Source of the DNA: a bacterium
GTDB lineage: Bacteria; Patescibacteriota; Minisyncoccia; Phycocordibacterales; UBA12445
Direction: 5' to 3'
NCBI GenBank assembly: GCA_030648005.1
Contig: JAUSIP010000016.1
Span: 1,110 to 65,109 of the forward strand
Length of the DNA stretch: 64,000 nucleotides
Part shown: positions 3,001 to 16,523 of the stretch, piece after piece
Layout of the letters: the number at the start of each line of letters is the position of its first letter
How positions within the stretch are numbered: the first letter of the stretch is position 1
Program-made: the position numbers and the translations under genes
Notes under the pieces: generated by a model
The model's input: the letters and a program-made list of their open reading frames with translations, nothing else
The model's database searches: none
Told to the model about the DNA's origin: nothing

Positions 3001-4144
3001 TCTTGCATCCGGCAAAACAGCAGATGTTGAATTGACTTATACTGTGGCAGAGTTAGCAACTTCAAATATAGACACCACAACAGAGGTCGGCAAATTAACA
3101 GTCGTATCTTATAGTTCCGATAAGGGAGATTGGGAAACATTAAGTACGGTCGCAACCTACAAAGATTCGGCTGGAGATGTCGTGGCTTCCCCGAATGCTA
3201 ATCTATCTAACGTATCATCAGTCAGCTTCATTGCCTCAGGTACTCACTTCTCAGCATACGCCCTATCTTCTTCTGAGGGTGTATCACCGCCCGATGCGCC
3301 GACAGGAGTGACTGCTACTCCGGCAACAAACGTAGCTAGGGTTACGTTAACGTGGACTGCCTCTCCTGATGCTGAAGGATATTATGTTTACAGAGACACA
3401 TCTGCTGGTGGCACCTTCCCGTTAATTGGAAATCCTGGAAACACAACAAGCTATACCGATAATGCTGTATCAATCTCAACTACCTACCTCTATAAGGTGT
3501 CGGCATTTAAATCTAGTGGCGCTTCGGAATCATCACCTTCATCTGCTGTGAGCGCCACAACTCTTTCTGGCGGAGGTGGCGGAGGCGGAGGAGGAGCTGC
3601 CGCGTCACCTTCACCTGCTCCAGCAGCATCTACACCAGTAGTTGCCACTCCGGCACCTGTTGCGAAGCCAGCTGTTAAAGAGACCATAGGTCTTGCAATC
3701 CCTGTAAGTACTAGTGGTACAAATAGGATAGTTATAGGACATAAATTCTTGAAGGTGCTTAAGATTGGCAATAAGGGCAATGAGGTCAAGGCCCTTCAGG
3801 ATATTCTTGAGGCACAGGGACATCTTAAGATGCCTAAGGGTGTAGCTAAGGGCACCTTCGGCTCATTAACCAAAGAGGCTATTAAGAAGTTCCAGAAAGC
3901 CAATAATATCGCCAAAGAGGGTCAGCCTGGCTTCGGTGATCTTGGACCTAAGACTAGAGCGAAGTTGAATGAGATGGCTGTGGTAGAAACACCAAAAACG
4001 GAGGCAGAACCGGCCAAAGCACCAGAAGCATCTAAGTCAGCATCTGTTATGACTTCGGAGGCTAAAACAGCATTGATCAGCACTCTCTTACAGCAAATTC
4101 AGGCTCTGCAAGAAGTGCTTAAGGGTCTGAAGGCCGGACAATAG
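2..4144 (+). CDS. Giant cell-surface protein, 5'-partial (frame open to window edge): tandem carboxypeptidase-regulatory-like/Ig-like beta-sandwich repeats, fibronectin type III domain, Gly9 linker, putative peptidoglycan-binding (PG_binding_1-like) domain, Ala/Pro/Lys-rich tail
   Basis: Frame 2 has no stop from base 2; the ORF track only starts at the first GTG (302). Repeats such as ISGTVYKDSATSG...GRYSIKALDGTYQILVSKPQY and ITGQVTDGSS...GNYTLYVSNGTWKVS. FN3-like PDAPTGVTATPATNVARVTLTWTASPDAEGYYVYRD. GGGGGGGGG run. C-terminal LKIGNKGNEVKALQDILEAQGHL...GTFGSLTKEAIKKFQKANNI matches the peptidoglycan-binding domain pattern. Confidence 0.6.
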   Translation, partial: SSSDFSICCVATTSSSNPSVATQNTDINGPGTGTVGIKTITADTLAKTVTLTLDTATRSENSDTHDFLRFTIAGLKNPSIPKGIDSSGYVLDIKSKNASGVLLESFNANPVYIGGGTAGGGSVTTIRGVVSGNGSNLKDVPVHLMSPSTGPQDATTDANGLYQFTNIPVGSQFLSNNFGGGNEYMVFIEPFITGVSDENGATTTNFFGNTMPSPVIATSTSLIGKNFSLTPANTASIAANFTVRLTAAANTFTAAETLDVFAGGPGQFVSRTITPGASALSNSTLTTVPIPKVNGSWGVGISPPMPKGGGFSGPPPSPNWSMPKPIEVKVSGCPSACVTSVSGFATTSNIFTISTADKTISGVLKDGSGNAIASAMVFAFSPSTDAGGGTGNSTQSSTVGAFSIKVVAGTYVVGAYSPGIGESKKVTVVVDSSGNVFVDGNATASTGSSGANPFTLKMVKPDYSITGQVTDGSSAVGNAPVFAYRTDAPGHADAMSDSSTGNYTLYVSNGTWKVSSFIPGFGPMAEQTVTVSGSSQSNINFAPSSSQTFSILSGNIYEDTNRSDTFTAGEGLSGAVIRVSNGTNVNEGVSSTDGAYTVRVPSGTGYKIQDIFSPTYGRIAPIGDSGAAIGTINLTASTTKNIRIPIRGTVSIIIKDSSGNPLTVPKAFIDLFDNTTGLGNHVEIDNGTTTSILMASSTSAYTVKAYIQGIPPANISVASDDAGTTVTSGRITINRATEYIKIVVNTASAGMSTISGTVYKDSATSGNELEGAWIQFVDQTNGVQFGTQSTSSGRYSIKALDGTYQILVSKPQYVATPTTLVVSGATTQNMTMTQSSLTISGTVTSGGVAAASSFVRGEKVGGGQAITQTDTNGTYTLNVTPGTWRVFAAADGYAEAGYASNPLTVSSSQSSINVALSTAASVQSKLATSNTFSDTSAGTFSDTTVNLKVSVDANAFGSAGASSYFTAKETTNYPNTTSVNIVANKAKDISAFSGGSQVTNLASGKTADVELTYTVAELATSNIDTTTEVGKLTVVSYSSDKGDWETLSTVATYKDSAGDVVASPNANLSNVSSVSFIASGTHFSAYALSSSEGVSPPDAPTGVTATPATNVARVTLTWTASPDAEGYYVYRDTSAGGTFPLIGNPGNTTSYTDNAVSISTTYLYKVSAFKSSGASESSPSSAVSATTLSGGGGGGGGGAAASPSPAPAASTPVVATPAPVAKPAVKETIGLAIPVSTSGTNRIVIGHKFLKVLKIGNKGNEVKALQDILEAQGHLKMPKGVAKGTFGSLTKEAIKKFQKANNIAKEGQPGFGDLGPKTRAKLNEMAVVETPKTEAEPAKAPEASKSASVMTSEAKTALISTLLQQIQALQEVLKGLKAGQ

Positions 4145-9740: not shown

Positions 9741-9768
9741 TTGACAAAATATCTAATTATCTTACAAT
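9741..9768 (+). promoter_or_regulatory. Sigma70-type promoter upstream of clpB
   Basis: TTGACA (9741-9746), 16-nt spacer, TACAAT (9763-9768). Confidence 0.5.
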
Positions 9769-9780
9769 CTTCATATTGCT

Positions 9781-12450
9781 ATGTTGCCATTCAATAACTT
9801 CACAACCAAAGCCAAAGAGGCCGTAAGGAAGGCTCATGAACTGGTTATAGAAAGAGGACAGAACCAGGTTGCGCCTATACATCTTCTTATTGCCTTGCTT
9901 ATCCAGGAAGATAGCCTCGTTCTGTCTATCCTTGATCGTTTGGAAGTAGATACTATTCTTCTGACTGATCACCTGATAGAGACTGTTGAGGGTGAAGCCG
10001 GTGGCAGTGTCTCAGCTCCAGCCTATCAGATATATCTGACGGCTGAGCTTGTTAAGGTGTTAGATATGGCGGCTAAGGCGGCGGCTTACTTGAAGGATGA
10101 ATTCATCTCTACTGAACATTTACTTGTGGCACTTCTTGATGTTCAGAGCCAGGCGCGCGATATACTCAATAAATTTAAAATTTCTAAAGATGAACTGCTT
10201 AAGATTTTGCAGGAGATCAAGAATGGCAAGATCACAGATGTAGTGCCAAAGAAGAAGGCGCATGCTCTGGAGCGGTACACTAGAAATCTTACAAGGCTTG
10301 CTCGTGAGGACAAGCTCGATCCTGTTATTGGACGAGATGAAGAGATCAGACGCGTGATGCAGATACTCTCAAGAAGGACCAAAAATAATCCTGTACTTAT
10401 AGGTGAGCCGGGTACTGGCAAGACCGCCGTGGCAGAAGGTTTGGCTAATAGAATTGCCAAAGGTGACGTACCGGATATTTTAAAGAATAAGGAGATAGTG
10501 TCTCTCGACATGGGGTCGCTGGTAGCTGGTACAAAGTACCGCGGAGAATTCGAAGAGAGGCTTAAGGGAATTTTAAAAGATGTAGAGAAGGCGAATGGCA
10601 ATATAATTCTATTCATAGATGAAATACACACCATCGTTGGAGCCGGTGCGGCTGAGGGCTCTATAGATGCGTCTAATATGTTGAAGCCTGCCCTTGCGCG
10701 CGGAGAGCTTCGTGCTATCGGAGCTACAACACTCAAGGAGTATCAGAAATATATTGAGAGAGACATGGCACTAGCCAGAAGATTCCAGCCGGTCTATGTA
10801 GGTGAGCCGAGTATTGAAGATGCAGTGGCGATACTTAGAGGTCTTCGGGATAGGTATGAGTTGCATCACGGTATTAAAATAAATGATGATGCGATCGTTG
10901 CGGCGGTCAACTTGAGCGCTAGATATATTGGAGACAGATTTTTGCCCGACAAAGCTATTGATCTTATAGATGAAGCTTCGGCTTCACTCCGGCTTTCGCT
11001 GGAAGACAAGCCAATGCTTCTTTTAGAGACCGACAAGAAGATTATGAGGCTTGAAGTTGAGAAGGAGGCGCTGAAGAAGGATGAGAGTGTAGATCAGAAG
11101 GCTGTTAAGACGCGCATAAAACAGATAGACAAAGAGGTCGGCGATCTACGAGAGACAACTTCCGAACTGGATAATCGCTGGAAAAATGAGAAGAAAAATA
11201 TTGTTGATACAAGGGCGATCAAGAAAGAACTTGAAGCTCTTCGGCTTGAGGCCGAAGCAGCGGAGATGCGCGCTGATTTAGGATTGGTGGCGGAGATCAG
11301 ATACGGCCGTATTCCACAGAAAGAGAGGGAGCTTAAGGAAACAGAGACAAAATTAAAGAAGCTTCAGAATAATAAGAGGATTTTGAAAGAAGAGGTAAAC
11401 GCAGAAGATATCGCCGGTGTAGTGTCTAAGTGGACAGGTATCCCAGTATTCCGAATGCTTGAGGAGGAAGTAGAGAAGTTGAAGAGAATGGAGGAAGAGC
11501 TTGCTAAGAGGGTTATCGGTCAGGCGGATGCAGTCAAGAAGGTTTCTGGTGCCATCAGACGCTCTCGTGCTGGTATTTCTGATCCAGACAGGCCAATAGG
11601 TTCATTCATGTTCTTGGGGCCCTCAGGTGTTGGCAAGACAGAACTTGCCAAGTCGCTGTCAGAGTTTATGTTTAACGATGAGAAGGCGATCATCCGCATA
11701 GATATGTCGGAATTCATGGAGAAGCACTCCGTGTCAAAGTTGATCGGCTCTCCGCCAGGCTATGTCGGTTATGAAGAGAGCGGTAAGCTGACAGAGATGG
11801 TTCGACATAGGCCGTACTCTATAATCCTCTTCGATGAGATCGAGAAGGCACATCCAGAGGTGTTTAACATACTCCTTCAGGTTCTTGATAATGGAAGGCT
11901 GACGGATTCTAAGGGACGAATCGTTAACTTCAAGAATACTGTTATAATTCTGACATCCAATATTGGATCCGAATATATCAGCAAGATGTCATCTATTGGC
12001 TTTGGTAACAATGCCATTAGCGACGGTTACGCTGAGACTAAAGATAAGATCCGAGATACTTTGAAAGACCACTTTAGGCCGGAGTTCTTGAATCGTCTGG
12101 ATGAGATCATAATCTTCGATACATTGAAGGACGAGACATTAAAGATGATTGTTGGTAACCAACTAAATATTGTAAGGAAGAGGCTGACAGACAAGGGGAT
12201 AGGTTTGGAGGTGAGTGATGAAGTTCTGATAAGCTTGGCGAAGGAGGGTTACAATCCAAATTACGGAGCGAGACCACTGAAGCGTTTGATTCAAACTAAA
12301 ATATTGAATCCAATATCAGAATTCTTGATCTCAAGCTCTGTAATATCCGGCTCTAGGATCTCCGTATATATGAAGAACGGCATTGTTGAAGTCGGTATTG
12401 TTTCCGGTGTGGCGAAAGCTAGACAGGCTAGGGTATCTAAGTTATCCTAG
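9781..12450 (+). CDS. clpB: ATP-dependent chaperone ClpB
   Basis: Clp N domain, two AAA+ modules ([15 protein letters not shown]; [14 protein letters not shown]), long middle coiled-coil typical of ClpB; 889 aa. Confidence 0.92.
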
Positions 12451-13450: not shown

Positions 13451-14674
13451 ATGGAGAGGCTTAAACAAAAATTACCCGATTCGCCCGGAGTTTATTTCTT
13501 TAAGAAAGGAAAGGGTATTTTGTATATCGGCCGGGCTACGTCACTTCAAAGCCGTGTTAGAAGTTACTTTAATAAAGAGACGATAAATTCCCGTGGGGCT
13601 TTTATTGCGGGAATGGTTGCAGAAGCTACTTCGCTAGTTTGCAGACAGACTGATTCTGTTCTAGAGGCGATAATTCTGGAGGCGGAACTCATTAAAAAAT
13701 ACCAACCAAGATTTAATTCTAAAGAGAAAGATAATAAGAGTTTTTATTATATTGTCGTCACGGCTGAAAATTTTCCTAGAGTACTCATGGTTCGGGGTAG
13801 GAATTTAGAGATGAAAGATAATGATTTCAAAATTAAGAAACTTTTTGGCCCTTTCCCATCCGGCACAGAATTGAAGGAGGCACTCCGAGTCATCAGGAAA
13901 CTTTTCCCATTCAGAGATAAATGTTTGCCAAATTCAGGGAGATCTTGTTTTAACCGCCAAATAGATCTATGCCCGGGTGTTTGTATTGGAGAGGTATCTC
14001 GTGTTGAGTATAAAAAGCAGACTAAAAAAATAGAACTATTTTTGTCGGGCAAGAAGAAGACTGTGATCAGCTTACTTAAGAAGGAGATGAATATTTTTGC
14101 GAATAAAAGAGAATTTGAAAGAGCCGAAATTACAAAAAGAAAGATCTTTGCACTCGAACATATACAGGATGTAAGCTTGATAAAGAGAGAGTCGGCAATA
14201 TTACCGGATTTTGGCGAAAAAAATAAAATATTCAGAATAGAAGCATATGATATCGCACATCAGAGCGGGACGAATAATGTCGGGGTGATGGTTGTCTTAG
14301 AGAACAATGAACCCAATAAGGAAGAGTATAGGAAGTTTAAAATAAGAGGGGATTATCCATCTGATGATTTGCGATCATTGCGCGAGGTGTTGGAGAGACG
14401 GCTGAATCATCCCGAGTGGCGCTTTCCTGACTTGATAGTCGTCGACGGAGGCAAACTTCAGGTGGCTGTGGCGGAAGATATAATGAAGCGCGATGGTCTG
14501 CTTATTCCAATTGTTGGTGTAGTCAAAGATGAACATCATAGGCCTAAGAATATTTTGGGAGATGTTGAGATAATTAAAAAATATGAAAGAAAAATACTGC
14601 TGGCCAATAATGAGGCGCATAGCTACGCTATCAATTATTTTAGGAAACTAAGTATTAAGAGTATGAAGGGATAG
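13451..14674 (+). CDS. uvrC: Excinuclease ABC subunit C, short form lacking the C-terminal HhH domain
   Basis: GIY-YIG N-terminus (PGVYFFKKGKGILYIGRATSLQSRVRSYF), Cys-rich and UVR segments, RNase-H-like endonuclease domain (FRIEAYDIAHQSGTNNVGVMVV...DDLRSLREVLERR); 407 aa. Confidence 0.85.
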   Translation: MERLKQKLPDSPGVYFFKKGKGILYIGRATSLQSRVRSYFNKETINSRGAFIAGMVAEATSLVCRQTDSVLEAIILEAELIKKYQPRFNSKEKDNKSFYYIVVTAENFPRVLMVRGRNLEMKDNDFKIKKLFGPFPSGTELKEALRVIRKLFPFRDKCLPNSGRSCFNRQIDLCPGVCIGEVSRVEYKKQTKKIELFLSGKKKTVISLLKKEMNIFANKREFERAEITKRKIFALEHIQDVSLIKRESAILPDFGEKNKIFRIEAYDIAHQSGTNNVGVMVVLENNEPNKEEYRKFKIRGDYPSDDLRSLREVLERRLNHPEWRFPDLIVVDGGKLQVAVAEDIMKRDGLLIPIVGVVKDEHHRPKNILGDVEIIKKYERKILLANNEAHSYAINYFRKLSIKSMKG

Positions 14675-14817
14675 ACTTGAAACTTACAGTTTCAGTACCC
14701 GCGATTGGGTTTTTTAATTCGCTCCGCTCTTAAAAAAGCCTCAATCGGGCTTCAAGTCTCTCACAGAAGACACTTAGGTGTCTTCTTCCGCGTCAAAATT
14801 TCACTTCGTTCAATTTG

Positions 14818-14900
14818 TGCCGCGGGAGAGACTTGAACTCTCACGAGGTTGCCCCCGATAGATTTTGAGTCTATTGCGTCTACCATTCCGCCACCGCGGC
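14818..14900 (-). tRNA. tRNA-Leu (anticodon CAA), type II
   Basis: Minus-strand sense gccgcgg...ataga-ctcaaaa-tctat...gagag-ttcaagt-ctctc-ccgcggc-a. Confidence 0.8.
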
Positions 14901-14946
14901 AGCACCAGATAAAATTATCAAACATTTGACAAAAACGCAAATAAGT

Positions 14947-14975
14947 TTGACAGACTTATCTGAGTCTGCTACAAT
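14947..14975 (+). promoter_or_regulatory. Consensus sigma70 promoter (TTGACA-17-TACAAT)
   Basis: TTGACA 14947-14952, 17-nt spacer, TACAAT 14970-14975; a second TTGACA lies about 20 nt upstream. Confidence 0.6.
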
Positions 14976-15016
14976 ATGTAAGTAATATTGAACCTTGACT
15001 AAGGAGGGATTTAAAC

Positions 15017-15100
15017 ATGAAGCAAACGAACGTTGCAGCCCTCATTCTTATCCTGATCACCATTGTGGTTATTGCACTTTCTACCATCGTTCGTCGTTAG
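15017..15100 (+). CDS. 27-aa hydrophobic single-TM peptide (MKQTNVAALILILITIVVIALSTIVRR)
   Basis: ATG 8 nt after AAGGAGGG; stop TAG overlaps the SD of the next ORF. Confidence 0.5.
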   Translation: MKQTNVAALILILITIVVIALSTIVRR

Positions 15101-15108
15101 GAGGATAT

Positions 15109-15294
15109 ATGCTTACAGTCTACTGTACTCTAAAATGTCGATTCCTGGACATCAACCACATGCACTGTGTTAAGTGCGGTGAGGTGTGCAGTACGATGTG
15201 CCATCCGGAGTCATGTCCTGCGCCGGTTAAATTGCACTCTGAACCGGAAACGACCAAGGACATAACGAGACTAGCTTTTCTCGAAGGGCTTTAA
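15109..15294 (+). CDS. 61-aa Cys/His-rich small protein (7 Cys, 4 His in the first 40 aa)
   Basis: ATG after TAGGAGGA; MLTVYCTLKCRFLDINHMHCVKCGEVCSTMCHPESCPAP...; the frame is also open upstream to TTG 14995 (alternative 99-aa reading, also Cys/His-rich). Confidence 0.45.
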   Translation: MLTVYCTLKCRFLDINHMHCVKCGEVCSTMCHPESCPAPVKLHSEPETTKDITRLAFLEGL

Positions 15295-15307
15295 TAAGAC
15301 AAGGTGT

Positions 15308-15341
15308 CTGACCCGCGGTATAACTGCGGGTCTTTTTTTTT
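15308..15341 (+). terminator. Rho-independent terminator
   Basis: gacccgcgg-tataa-ctgcgggtc followed by a T9 run. Confidence 0.8.
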
Positions 15342-15365
15342 GTATCCAAAAAAGTTTGTGCTAAA

Positions 15366-16379
15366 ATGCAGGGTATGAATCCTGAAGAGAACAGAGAAAG
15401 TAAGAATGGCCTGAGCCATTCGATATTTTGGATCGAGCTGGAGAAGATCAAACCGAATCCTTACCAGCCGAGGCACGAATTCGATCAGGCACAGTTGAAT
15501 GACTTGGCGGAGTCTATTCGTCAGTACGGGGTTCTTCAGCCCCTTGTTGCCACTAGGAAGGAGTTCAAGACAGAAGATGGCGGACTCGGTGTTGAATATG
15601 AGCTAATCGCTGGAGAGAGGCGTCTCCGTGCTTCGAAGATAGCAGGTATATCACAGGTGCCGGTGGTTATCAGGACAGGTGAGCAATCTGATCTTGTTAA
15701 ACTTGAGCTGGCGATAATTGAGAACATTCAAAGAGAGGATTTAAATTCAGTAGATCGAGCGCGCGCCTTCAAACAACTTGTAGATAAATTTAATTTCAAA
15801 CACGCAGAGATAGCCGTTAAGGTTGGTAAGAGCCGAGAATATGTCTCCAACACCATGAGGATTTTAGATTTGCCGGAGGAGATACTTGAGGCGGTGTCGG
15901 CCAAGAAGATTACCGAAGGACACACAAGGCCACTCTTGATGCTTATTGATCGCAAGGAAGAGCAGATGACGCTCTTCAAGGAGATCATGTACAAAAAGCT
16001 TTCAGTTAGGGAGGCAGAAAGCATCGCCAGGAAGATTGCGGTGGAGAAGGTTAGGAAGAAGGATTATGGCGTTGATCCGGAGATCATAGACTTGGAGTCG
16101 AAGCTGACGGAGAAGCTTGGTACTAGAGTTGCGATAGAGAAGAGGGAATTCGGCGGGCGAGTGACTATCGACTTCTTCTCCAAAGAGGACGTTCACAACC
16201 TCCTTAGTCTTATAACTTCAGGCAAGATTGCTGCTCCGGCGGATCTGGCGAAGTTTGCAAATGGAATAGCCTCCAATGCTCCGACCTCAGAGAACGGCGC
16301 GCCGATAGACGATGTGCCAAAAGCGGAGAAAGATATGGACGATCCTGATCTGTATTCTCTAAAAAATTTTAGCGTTTAA
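15366..16379 (+). CDS. parB: ParB/Spo0J-like partition protein with extended acidic C-terminal tail; no adjacent parA
   Basis: IELEKIKPNPYQPR...YELIAGERRLRASKIAG...VPVVIR ParB box; HTH region. Confidence 0.8.
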   Translation: MQGMNPEENRESKNGLSHSIFWIELEKIKPNPYQPRHEFDQAQLNDLAESIRQYGVLQPLVATRKEFKTEDGGLGVEYELIAGERRLRASKIAGISQVPVVIRTGEQSDLVKLELAIIENIQREDLNSVDRARAFKQLVDKFNFKHAEIAVKVGKSREYVSNTMRILDLPEEILEAVSAKKITEGHTRPLLMLIDRKEEQMTLFKEIMYKKLSVREAESIARKIAVEKVRKKDYGVDPEIIDLESKLTEKLGTRVAIEKREFGGRVTIDFFSKEDVHNLLSLITSGKIAAPADLAKFANGIASNAPTSENGAPIDDVPKAEKDMDDPDLYSLKNFSV

Positions 16380-16410: not shown

Positions 16411-16523
16411 CAATTTTTAATTTTTAATTTTGCAATTTTCAATGAATGTCGCAATGAATAAATGTTTAAAATATTGGAGCATTAAAAATTCATTGAAAAT
16501 TGTAAAATTAAAAATTTAAAATT
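16411..16523. repeat. AT-rich imperfect inverted repeat (about 35-nt arms, about 37-nt spacer) between the convergent parB and rel genes
   Basis: Left arm ...aattttgcaattttcaatgaatg; right arm cattgaaaattgtaaaattaaaaatttaaaa (about 21/22 matches in the core). Confidence 0.5.

Follow-up and report, generated by a model that had tools for sequence, protein, structure and literature searches.

Small genetic modules that pair or isolate short genes are known from several well-described systems. MqsR-MqsA is a type II toxin-antitoxin pair in which the toxin gene comes first and the antitoxin joins an N-terminal zinc domain to a C-terminal helical domain, Hok, Fst, TisB, GhoT and TimP are small membrane toxins of type I or other types, and phage morons are autonomous promoter-gene-terminator units set between genes. 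Bacteria of the candidate phyla radiation (CPR) carry many lineage-specific small proteins of unknown role. Among the small membrane toxins, TimP is described in PMC7667032. Here, we analyzed a two-gene cassette at positions 14941-15345 of a 64-kb stretch of contig JAUSIP010000016.1 (hereafter the window, to which all coordinates refer unless a related locus is named), from a bacterium that its ParB relatives place in Paceibacteria (Parcubacteria, CPR). The cassette is flanked by tRNA-Leu(CAA) (14817-14900, minus strand) and parB. We found that it is an autonomous ~395-bp accessory transcription unit with a promoter, two cistrons and a terminator, and that its second cistron belongs to a tiny undescribed protein family limited to four sister genomes and to the same chromosomal spot. 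It is highly probable that the operon is real and encodes a membrane peptide together with a metal-binding family member, while the case that both products are in addition functional partners is evenly balanced.

The cassette has traits in common with each of the closest described systems and differs from each. As in MqsR-MqsA, the presumed effector comes first, long forms of the family carry a zinc-type N-terminal domain and a helical domain, and the distribution is patchy and accessory; however, the first product is a 27-aa membrane peptide rather than an RNase, there is no helix-turn-helix match, and the window protein is without the helical domain. The first open reading frame (ORF1) resembles small membrane toxins, being shorter than 50 aa and having a single hydrophobic helix flanked by charged ends, but the cassette shows no antisense or overlapping small RNA signal in a consensus scan and no clearly occluded ribosome-binding site, has a consensus promoter and a strong ribosome-binding site, and supplies a protein as the partner. 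Like a phage moron, the cassette is an exact promoter-to-terminator unit between two otherwise adjacent genes and is absent in a close relative, whereas it is not in a prophage, has core-gene neighbours and lacks phage or plasmid homologues. It also recalls tRNA-linked hot spots and islets, with variable content by a tRNA and with T-arm fragments and an inversion nearby, but there is no integrase, the window cassette is on the 5' side of the tRNA, and the unit is only ~0.4 kb. The second product (ORF2) is similar to zinc-ribbon and rubredoxin-like knuckles (eL37, RCKP NF045720) as a short Cys/His-rich domain with an H-C-x2-C-G knuckle and predicted short beta-strands around the knuckles; it differs in that the first knuckle is C-x3-C, in that three His are invariant and eight ligands (CCHH+CCHC) replace one C4 site, and in that scores are far below thresholds with no detectable homology outside the four genomes. 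The cassette can be assigned to none of the named families tested, and the most fitting description is an accessory unit in which a small, probably metal-binding protein accompanies a small membrane peptide.

The elements of the cassette are the following.
14947-14975, plus strand: sigma-70-type promoter (consensus scan), TTGACA at 14947-14952, 17-nt spacer, TACAAT at 14970-14975, TG extended -10
15001-15008, plus strand: ribosome-binding site of ORF1, AAGGAGGG, with its GGAGG core 9 nt before ATG 15017
15017-15100, plus strand: ORF1, a predicted 27-aa single-pass membrane peptide (open reading frame and hydropathy), MKQTNVAALILILITIVVIALSTIVRR
15098-15105, plus strand: ORF1/ORF2 junction, TAGGAGGA, with the ORF1 TAG (15098-15100) embedded in the ORF2 ribosome-binding site
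15109-15294, plus strand: ORF2, a 61-aa Cys/His protein, short form of the family
15310-15341, plus strand: intrinsic terminator (consensus scan), 10-bp stem with 7 G-C pairs (15310-15332), 3-nt loop and T9

The original prediction, made from the bare sequence, had proposed a two-gene operon with two ribosome-binding sites, a stop overlap and a terminator; all of these were recovered in place, and the operon is a genuine, separately transcribed unit. The promoter had been called a perfect consensus, and the TTGACA-17-TACAAT arrangement is indeed present, although its score of 11/12 in the consensus scan makes it near-consensus. Across both strands of the window, TTGACA-N16-18-TAnAAT occurs in two copies, the second being the clpB promoter at 9741. 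This clpB promoter (9741-9771, TTGACA-N17-TAnAAT) ends 10 nt before the clpB start codon (ORF 9781-12450), and therefore such sigma-70-type promoters serve at least one core gene in the genome. Transcription of the cassette is predicted to start near 14982. The ORF2 start, ATG 15109, is 4 nt past the GGAGG core, and a layout with the stop inside the ribosome-binding site would favour translational coupling. Downstream, the putative terminator should insulate parB from cassette transcription, and equivalent terminators close the cassettes of three related loci (L048, L149 and L150). The fold energy of the predicted transcript is modestly low (z = -2.1 versus shuffles, terminator hairpin included), and in the minimum-energy structure the ORF1 ribosome-binding site is paired only in part and not clearly sequestered. 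On the minus strand of 14976-15345, no promoter-like site was found by the consensus scan, which can miss weak promoters. The spacer of the cassette promoter is occupied by a perfect 6+6 palindrome, CAGACT-tatctg-AGTCTG (14951-14968), which could be an operator and has no conserved counterpart in the L048, L149 and L150 promoters. The -35 hexamer sits at the edge of a block conserved with L048, and 14945-14969 is a 72% inverted copy of the tRNA 5' flank at 14899-14923.

A word-indexed search of 5.8 billion proteins with the 61-aa query found only itself, on an identical Logan contig (L001), and the same search with a 124-aa protein from the closest relative, L048 (P0002), also returned only the query. 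These two proteins have CxxxC...HxHCxxCG in common (two-sequence BLASTP E = 9e-6). A profile built from both was run with HMMER exhaustively over 1.84 billion representatives of ~15 billion predicted proteins and retrieved four proteins in total:
P0001: the window protein, 61 aa, profile E = 2.3e-13
P0002: 124 aa, from L048, profile member
P0003: 104 aa, from L149, profile E = 6.5e-12
P0004: 108 aa, from L150, profile E = 1.3e-4
When the word-indexed search was repeated with the family profile, nothing beyond these members was gained, and this Cys/His mini-protein family has only four members among 1.84 billion representatives. L150 additionally holds an uncalled 53-aa paralogue with a GTG start and AAGGAGGA upstream, whose N-terminus, MLSIHCTIKCRFLGEHRHCDKCGEE, closely matches MLTVYCTLKCRFLDINHMHCVKCGEV of the window protein. 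The 61-aa protein had been considered to belong to no recognised family, which holds, but it is not an orphan, given a four-member family and one uncalled paralogue. HMMER searching and conservation in related genomes had been put forward as checks, and they place all four members in sister Paceibacteria in the same slot (uvrC, tRNA-Leu(CAA), cassette, parB, relA). The four genomes that carry the family group as a single clade in a neighbour-joining tree of ParB (without support values), with L002 and L003 just outside it; a metagenome scan with ParB revealed no relatives closer than those in the genome collection.

The family motif is C-x3-C-x5/6-H-x-H-C-x2-C-G-x7/8-H-x2/3-C. In window numbering, C6, C10, H17, H19, C20, C23, G24, H32 and C36 are invariant in the four called proteins, in line with the Cys/His-rich character originally noticed in the second product, and the 53-aa paralogue in L150 keeps all of them but the last Cys. 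Six-frame translations of the window and of 148 loci contained no further instance of the motif C.{2,4}C.{4,12}H.HC..C. Eight of the invariant positions are candidate metal ligands (C6, C10, H17, H19, C20, C23, H32 and C36), and eight such ligands in ~31 residues suggest two putative metal sites, probably for zinc. The domains that carry them are neutral to strongly acidic, with net charges of 0 to -6. In the long forms (104-124 aa), the Cys/His domain is followed by three helices, which the AlphaFold model of P0003 places at 44-66, 72-85 and 88-99 with a predicted local distance difference test score (pLDDT) of 80-88. The window protein ends 25 residues past the last ligand and is missing this C-terminal three-helix domain, as is the 53-aa form of L150; no remnant of it is present in any frame of the window.

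Within the four genomes, the Cys/His gene is always (4/4) directly preceded by an ORF for a transmembrane protein with its own ribosome-binding site:
Window: upstream partner of 27 aa; 61-aa short form; no other cassette genes
L150: upstream partner of 43 aa; 53-aa short form (uncalled), then 108 aa (P0004); no other cassette genes
L048: upstream partner of 34 aa; 124 aa (P0002); also a 49-aa ORF upstream
L149: upstream partner of 90 aa; 104 aa (P0003); also a 48-aa transmembrane ORF and a 115-aa Janus/Ocnus protein
The partner stop is in or beside the next ribosome-binding site in all four, for example TAAGGAGA in L149, and also in L048. The net charges of partner tails and Cys/His domains (our count from the sequences, n = 4) are about +3 and -5 in L048, about +6 and -6 (long form) in L150, and near neutral and 0 in the window; in L149, the 48-aa peptide downstream of the gene has about +4 and the domain -5. 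The apparent co-variation of charge between tails and domains is a hint for recognition of the tail by the domain, which at n = 4 is a lead and not evidence.

Coding of the 61-aa frame was assessed from codon-level comparison of the four genomes. The seven invariant Cys/His positions inspected and the invariant Gly vary synonymously between genomes (TGT/TGC, CAC/CAT and GGT/GGA/GGC), and invariant ligands with synonymous codon changes indicate that the frame is translated. In every pair, the proportion of nonsynonymous differences (pN, 0.37-0.57) is below that of synonymous differences (pS, 0.75-0.97), which shows that the ORF2 protein is constrained; synonymous sites are saturated, and only pN < pS can be stated, no dN/dS. 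The family evolves much faster than its neighbour, with long-form identity of 38-46% compared to 81-86% for ParB. Outside the tRNA-promoter flank and the -35 hexamer, no DNA similarity to relatives can be detected, yet the protein motif persists. A 99-aa alternative frame from TTG 14995 had also been raised; this ORF exists, but its extension has no counterpart in any homologue, whereas the 61-aa frame is conserved and the homologues share the start that corresponds to ATG 15109, each directly behind its own ribosome-binding site. The scenario named as fatal to the original prediction, with neither ORF conserved and the region an untranslated tRNA-Leu leader, is contradicted by conservation in four genomes and by the tRNA being on the opposite strand. 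For ORF1, the Kyte-Doolittle 17-residue maximum of 3.2 indicates one strongly hydrophobic segment of transmembrane length, the peptide is as small and hydrophobic as a type I toxin peptide, and its codon/amino-acid score of 0.27, reached by 0.3% of off-frame windows, is that of a normal gene. Public gene records leave both the 27-aa ORF1 and the 53-aa ORF of L150 uncalled, and the small-protein operon here is a clean case that is half seen by gene callers.

The accessory nature of the cassette becomes evident from comparison of the slot between genomes, for which the following features are needed.
14670-14681, minus strand: second T-arm-like fragment (11/12), located at the stop codon of uvrC and marking the left boundary of the segment that L149 and L150 carry inverted
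14751-14762, plus strand: inverted T-arm copy, TTCAAGTCTCTC, a perfect 12-nt inverted repeat with 14826-14837
14817-14900, minus strand: tRNA-Leu(CAA), divergent; its promoter region (14901 to ~14946) borders the cassette on the left
14938-14949, plus strand: left copy of a 12-nt direct repeat, CAAATAAGTTTG, matching the empty-site boundary of L003
15347-15358, plus strand: right-hand copy of this repeat, CAAAAAAGTTTG, directly 5' of the parB extended -10

Across ~50 related loci, tRNA-Leu(CAA) is upstream of parB, usually divergent, with a gap of 40-100 nt. This gap is 465 nt in the window and 825 nt in L048, and only 66 nt in L003, whose ParB is 80-82% identical. The L003 gap aligns to window 14901 to ~14946 on the left and ~15340-15365 on the right, and the extra DNA of the window is therefore exactly the promoter-to-terminator unit. 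L003 is thus an empty site in which the whole cassette is dispensable, and cassette content varies among genomes with 81-86% identical ParB. The slot of L002 holds three small transmembrane ORFs unrelated to the window genes, two of them paralogous. The flanking order in the window (clpB, a 302-aa hypothetical gene, uvrC, cassette, parB, relA/spoT, topA, dprA and serS) is one of housekeeping genes, and there is no integrase or phage gene among ten scanned neighbours (covering ~8 kb on the left side and ~7 kb on the right). An accessory insertion next to a tRNA had been anticipated: the empty site and the variable content bear out its accessory character, but the cassette is on the 5' promoter side of the tRNA and not on the 3' side usual for integrases. 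We consider the tRNA-Leu(CAA)-parB gap a hot spot for small genes in one Paceibacteria clade. The 12-nt direct repeat that brackets the cassette is suggestive by position only, with ~0.8 such repeats expected by chance by our own estimate.

The tRNA segment itself has been rearranged. A tRNA fragment at 14735-14760 had been reported earlier; it is real but shorter, comprising 12 nt at 14751-14762. Three copies of the T-arm 12-mer lie within 14670-14837, and the rest of the 64 kb has none (0.55 expected over the window); these fragments bracket the tRNA segment, not the cassette. The segment ~14668-14922 (tRNA, promoter and 3' flank) is inverted in L149 (2193-2548) and L150 (1-216) relative to the window, L048 and L003, the tRNA part of it is inverted in L002 as well (3221-3310), and the edges of the inverted segment coincide with the T-arm-derived fragments. 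Edges of this kind suggest that copies of the tRNA 3' end have recombined repeatedly, although no integrase is nearby. In L150, a direct copy of the tRNA 3' end with 21/24 matching positions follows the tRNA at a distance of 133 nt downstream. On the ParB tree, sister taxa differ in the orientation of the segment, which suggests repeated inversion, tentatively as the tree is without support values.

Searches for named counterparts returned nothing above threshold for the cassette products in Pfam, NCBIfam, PADLOC and PHROGs, and an Rfam scan allowing E up to 10 yielded nothing except the tRNA and spurious matches, while a gathering-threshold Rfam scan of 14 related loci gave tRNAs only. Neither product is in a recognised family, in agreement with what had been supposed. 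The best PHROG match, phrog_6821 (function unknown), has E = 1.6e-4 over 23 residues of P0003 and is not significant. RCKP rubredoxin-like NF045720 reached 14-16 bits compared to a 45-bit cut-off (E = 0.008-0.03), and HCxxCG matched the eL37 zinc knuckle among PDB sequences with E = 0.011; these weak matches fit a metal-knuckle fold. A phage or plasmid origin was sought by an IMG/VR pattern scan, by tblastn against INPHARED and PLSDB, and in BFVD, without a match save an insignificant plasmid one (E = 0.8). No fold or profile match to DNA-binding families was obtained, and a full-text literature search found no described counterpart. Several identities were rejected individually. ZAS anti-sigma factors have H-x3-C-x2-C, compared to H-x2-C-x2-C or H-C-x2-C here, and the neighbours are uvrC, parB and relA with no sigma-factor gene. 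A J-domain identity, which would call for an HPD loop between helices II and III and for a J-domain profile or fold match, was not supported. An MqsRA-like type II toxin-antitoxin system is not supported by any recognisable toxin or antitoxin domain or by a DNA-binding domain, and a tRNA-targeted integrative element by neither an integrase among the ten neighbours nor tRNA 3'-end repeats bracketing the cassette. A tRNA-Leu leader is not supported, the tRNA being on the opposite strand and diverging from the cassette.

We infer that the pair is a dispensable, fast-evolving accessory module of conflict or addiction type rather than a housekeeping one. In the proposed working model, an mRNA of ~360 nt would be made from ~14982, and ribosomes would synthesize the 27-aa peptide, which would insert in the membrane. 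Termination at the UAG inside the next ribosome-binding site would be followed by re-initiation on the second cistron, such that both products would be made together. The 61-aa protein may then fold round two metal ions, probably zinc, and act at the inner membrane face as a soluble partner, binder or neutraliser of the peptide. The most specific version of this model is a new protein-protein toxin-antidote or conflict module in CPR, in an invertible tRNA-Leu-linked hot spot by parB, with a new CCHH+CCHC fold that recognises the cytoplasmic tail of the peptide; this we hold to be unlikely. If such a membrane-peptide/antidote module were real, it would represent both a new type of protein-neutralised small toxin and a new zinc fold; as it stands this is a well-supported accessory locus of putative function.

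Several observations weigh against an operon of a membrane peptide and a metal-binding protein that work together. We infer translation of ORF1 from its signals, typical composition and positional conservation, and homology of the partner peptides cannot be shown from their sequences: the window peptide has 22-26% identity to the three peptides and 15% to the N-terminus of the 90-aa protein, with no convincing alignment, and what they have in common is of a general kind ('AA.. I .. L S T'). For a toxic peptide, it is unusual to have a near-consensus promoter together with a strong ribosome-binding site. The codon score of ORF2 (-0.12, compared to 0.24 +/- 0.10 for real genes) resembles that of non-coding DNA, which we attribute to its richness in Cys and His, residues that make up 0.7% and 1.7% of the proteome, respectively, and synonymous-only bias hardly separates frames in this genome and is thus not decisive on coding. 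AlphaFold models the Cys/His domain with low confidence (pLDDT 42-66), the proposed split of the ligands into CCHH (C6, C10, H17, H19) and CCHC (C20, C23, H32, C36) is a pattern-based assignment, and the window protein, being without the three-helix domain, could be a disabled remnant.

Among the competing explanations, a toxin-antidote system would make the 27-aa peptide a membrane-damaging toxin similar to type I toxins or GhoT and the zinc protein its antidote, produced by coupled translation in toxin-first order like mqsR-mqsA. The short single-pass peptide with a charged end, the toxin-first order with the stop within the next ribosome-binding site, and the presence/absence variation and rapid divergence in close relatives would all agree with this, and the palindrome in the promoter spacer could serve as an operator. 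Nevertheless, no PADLOC or Pfam toxin or antitoxin model matches, the 61-aa protein has no DNA-binding domain, the palindrome is not conserved in L048, L149 and L150, the consensus scan found no antisense promoter, and the presumed toxin bears strong constitutive expression signals; we regard this explanation as unlikely. A decaying remnant, in which a long-form gene was truncated to a functionless 61-aa relic and the promoter, peptide and terminator persist by chance or owing to recent loss, is slightly less likely still. It would account for the three-helix domain of P0002, P0003 and P0004 missing from the window protein, for the atypical composition score of ORF2 and for L003, in which the whole cassette is dispensable. 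But the eight ligand positions, the start codon, the ribosome-binding site and the terminator are all intact, frameshifted remains of the C-terminal domain are found in no frame, and L150 has a short form beside a long form, with an N-terminus conserved with that of the window.

A small metal-dependent regulator, with the zinc protein binding nucleic acid, such as the palindrome of its own promoter or the parB or tRNA-Leu promoters, and the peptide modulating or anchoring it, is improbable: despite the zinc-knuckle-like HCxxCG motif, the 6+6 palindrome and the position of the cassette between two promoters, the Cys/His domains (0 to -6) are unlike DNA binders in charge, the relatives have not conserved the palindrome, parB is set apart from the cassette by a strong terminator, and no DNA-binding family fold or profile matches. 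That the region is a small RNA gene or a tRNA-Leu leader or promoter with accidental ORFs can practically be dismissed: a strong promoter and terminator round ~360 nt and a fold z of -2.1 would suit a small RNA, but the tRNA is divergent on the opposite strand, Rfam gives no match, and amino-acid conservation with synonymous codon turnover in four genomes, with the motif kept where DNA similarity has faded beyond the tRNA-promoter flank and -35, contradicts it for the 61-aa ORF. The suggestion of a ribosomally synthesized and post-translationally modified peptide (RiPP) or bacteriocin precursor with a small immunity peptide, based on a Cys-rich small ORF adjoining a small membrane peptide, is not supported and retains hardly any probability, given no modifying enzyme, transporter or protease within ~8 kb, no precursor family match apart from a thioviridamide match of E = 0.087 on a different protein, an N-terminal Cys/His cluster with no leader, and a folded helical domain in the long forms.

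Additional observations were made on the contents of the slot in relatives. L002 3378-3901 encodes a 62-aa protein with a C-terminal transmembrane segment and two Cys-containing hydrophobic paralogues of ~45 aa (33% identical, E = 2e-8). In L048, the stop of the 49-aa ORF (3291-3440) overlaps the next start (ATGA), and its GC content at third codon positions (GC3) of 0.82 and GC content of 0.59, compared to a GC3 of 0.34 for parB of that genome, point to a foreign or very recent origin. The 115-aa protein of L149 (3424-3771), beside the 48-aa transmembrane peptide, matches Janus/Ocnus (PF05005, E = 3.7e-18), which we take to be the mainly eukaryotic phosphohistidine-phosphatase PHPT1 family.

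On the right side of the cassette, a parB extended -10, TGcTAAAAT, is at 15359-15367 (TAAAAT 15362-15367) and is overlapped by the first parB ATG (15366), while a second ATG at 15375 (MNPEE...) is 7 nt past the -10. The parB mRNA thus probably begins at 15375 and would be translated with no leader or almost none. Both L048 and L149 retain the arrangement TGnTAAAAT-N7-ATGAATCC, and the second ATG is also the start chosen for parB of L001 in the Logan gene call. A search for parS in the window gave no convincing site. Between the convergent parB and relA/spoT, 16431-16504 is an AT-rich (23% GC), near-perfect long hairpin with spurious Rfam microRNA-precursor matches on both strands, and is probably a bidirectional terminator. 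Finally, in several more distant Paceibacteria (L008, L013, L056, L070 and others), the tRNA-Leu-parB gaps are 170-430 nt and without convincing ORFs. Blocks of gap sequence are conserved between genomes, for example at 86% over 73 nt and 89% over 47 nt, in the pairs L016 3677-3750 / L018 1600-1677 and L046 3740-3787 / L049 3778-3825; these blocks have no Rfam match and could be an undescribed small RNA or regulatory element.

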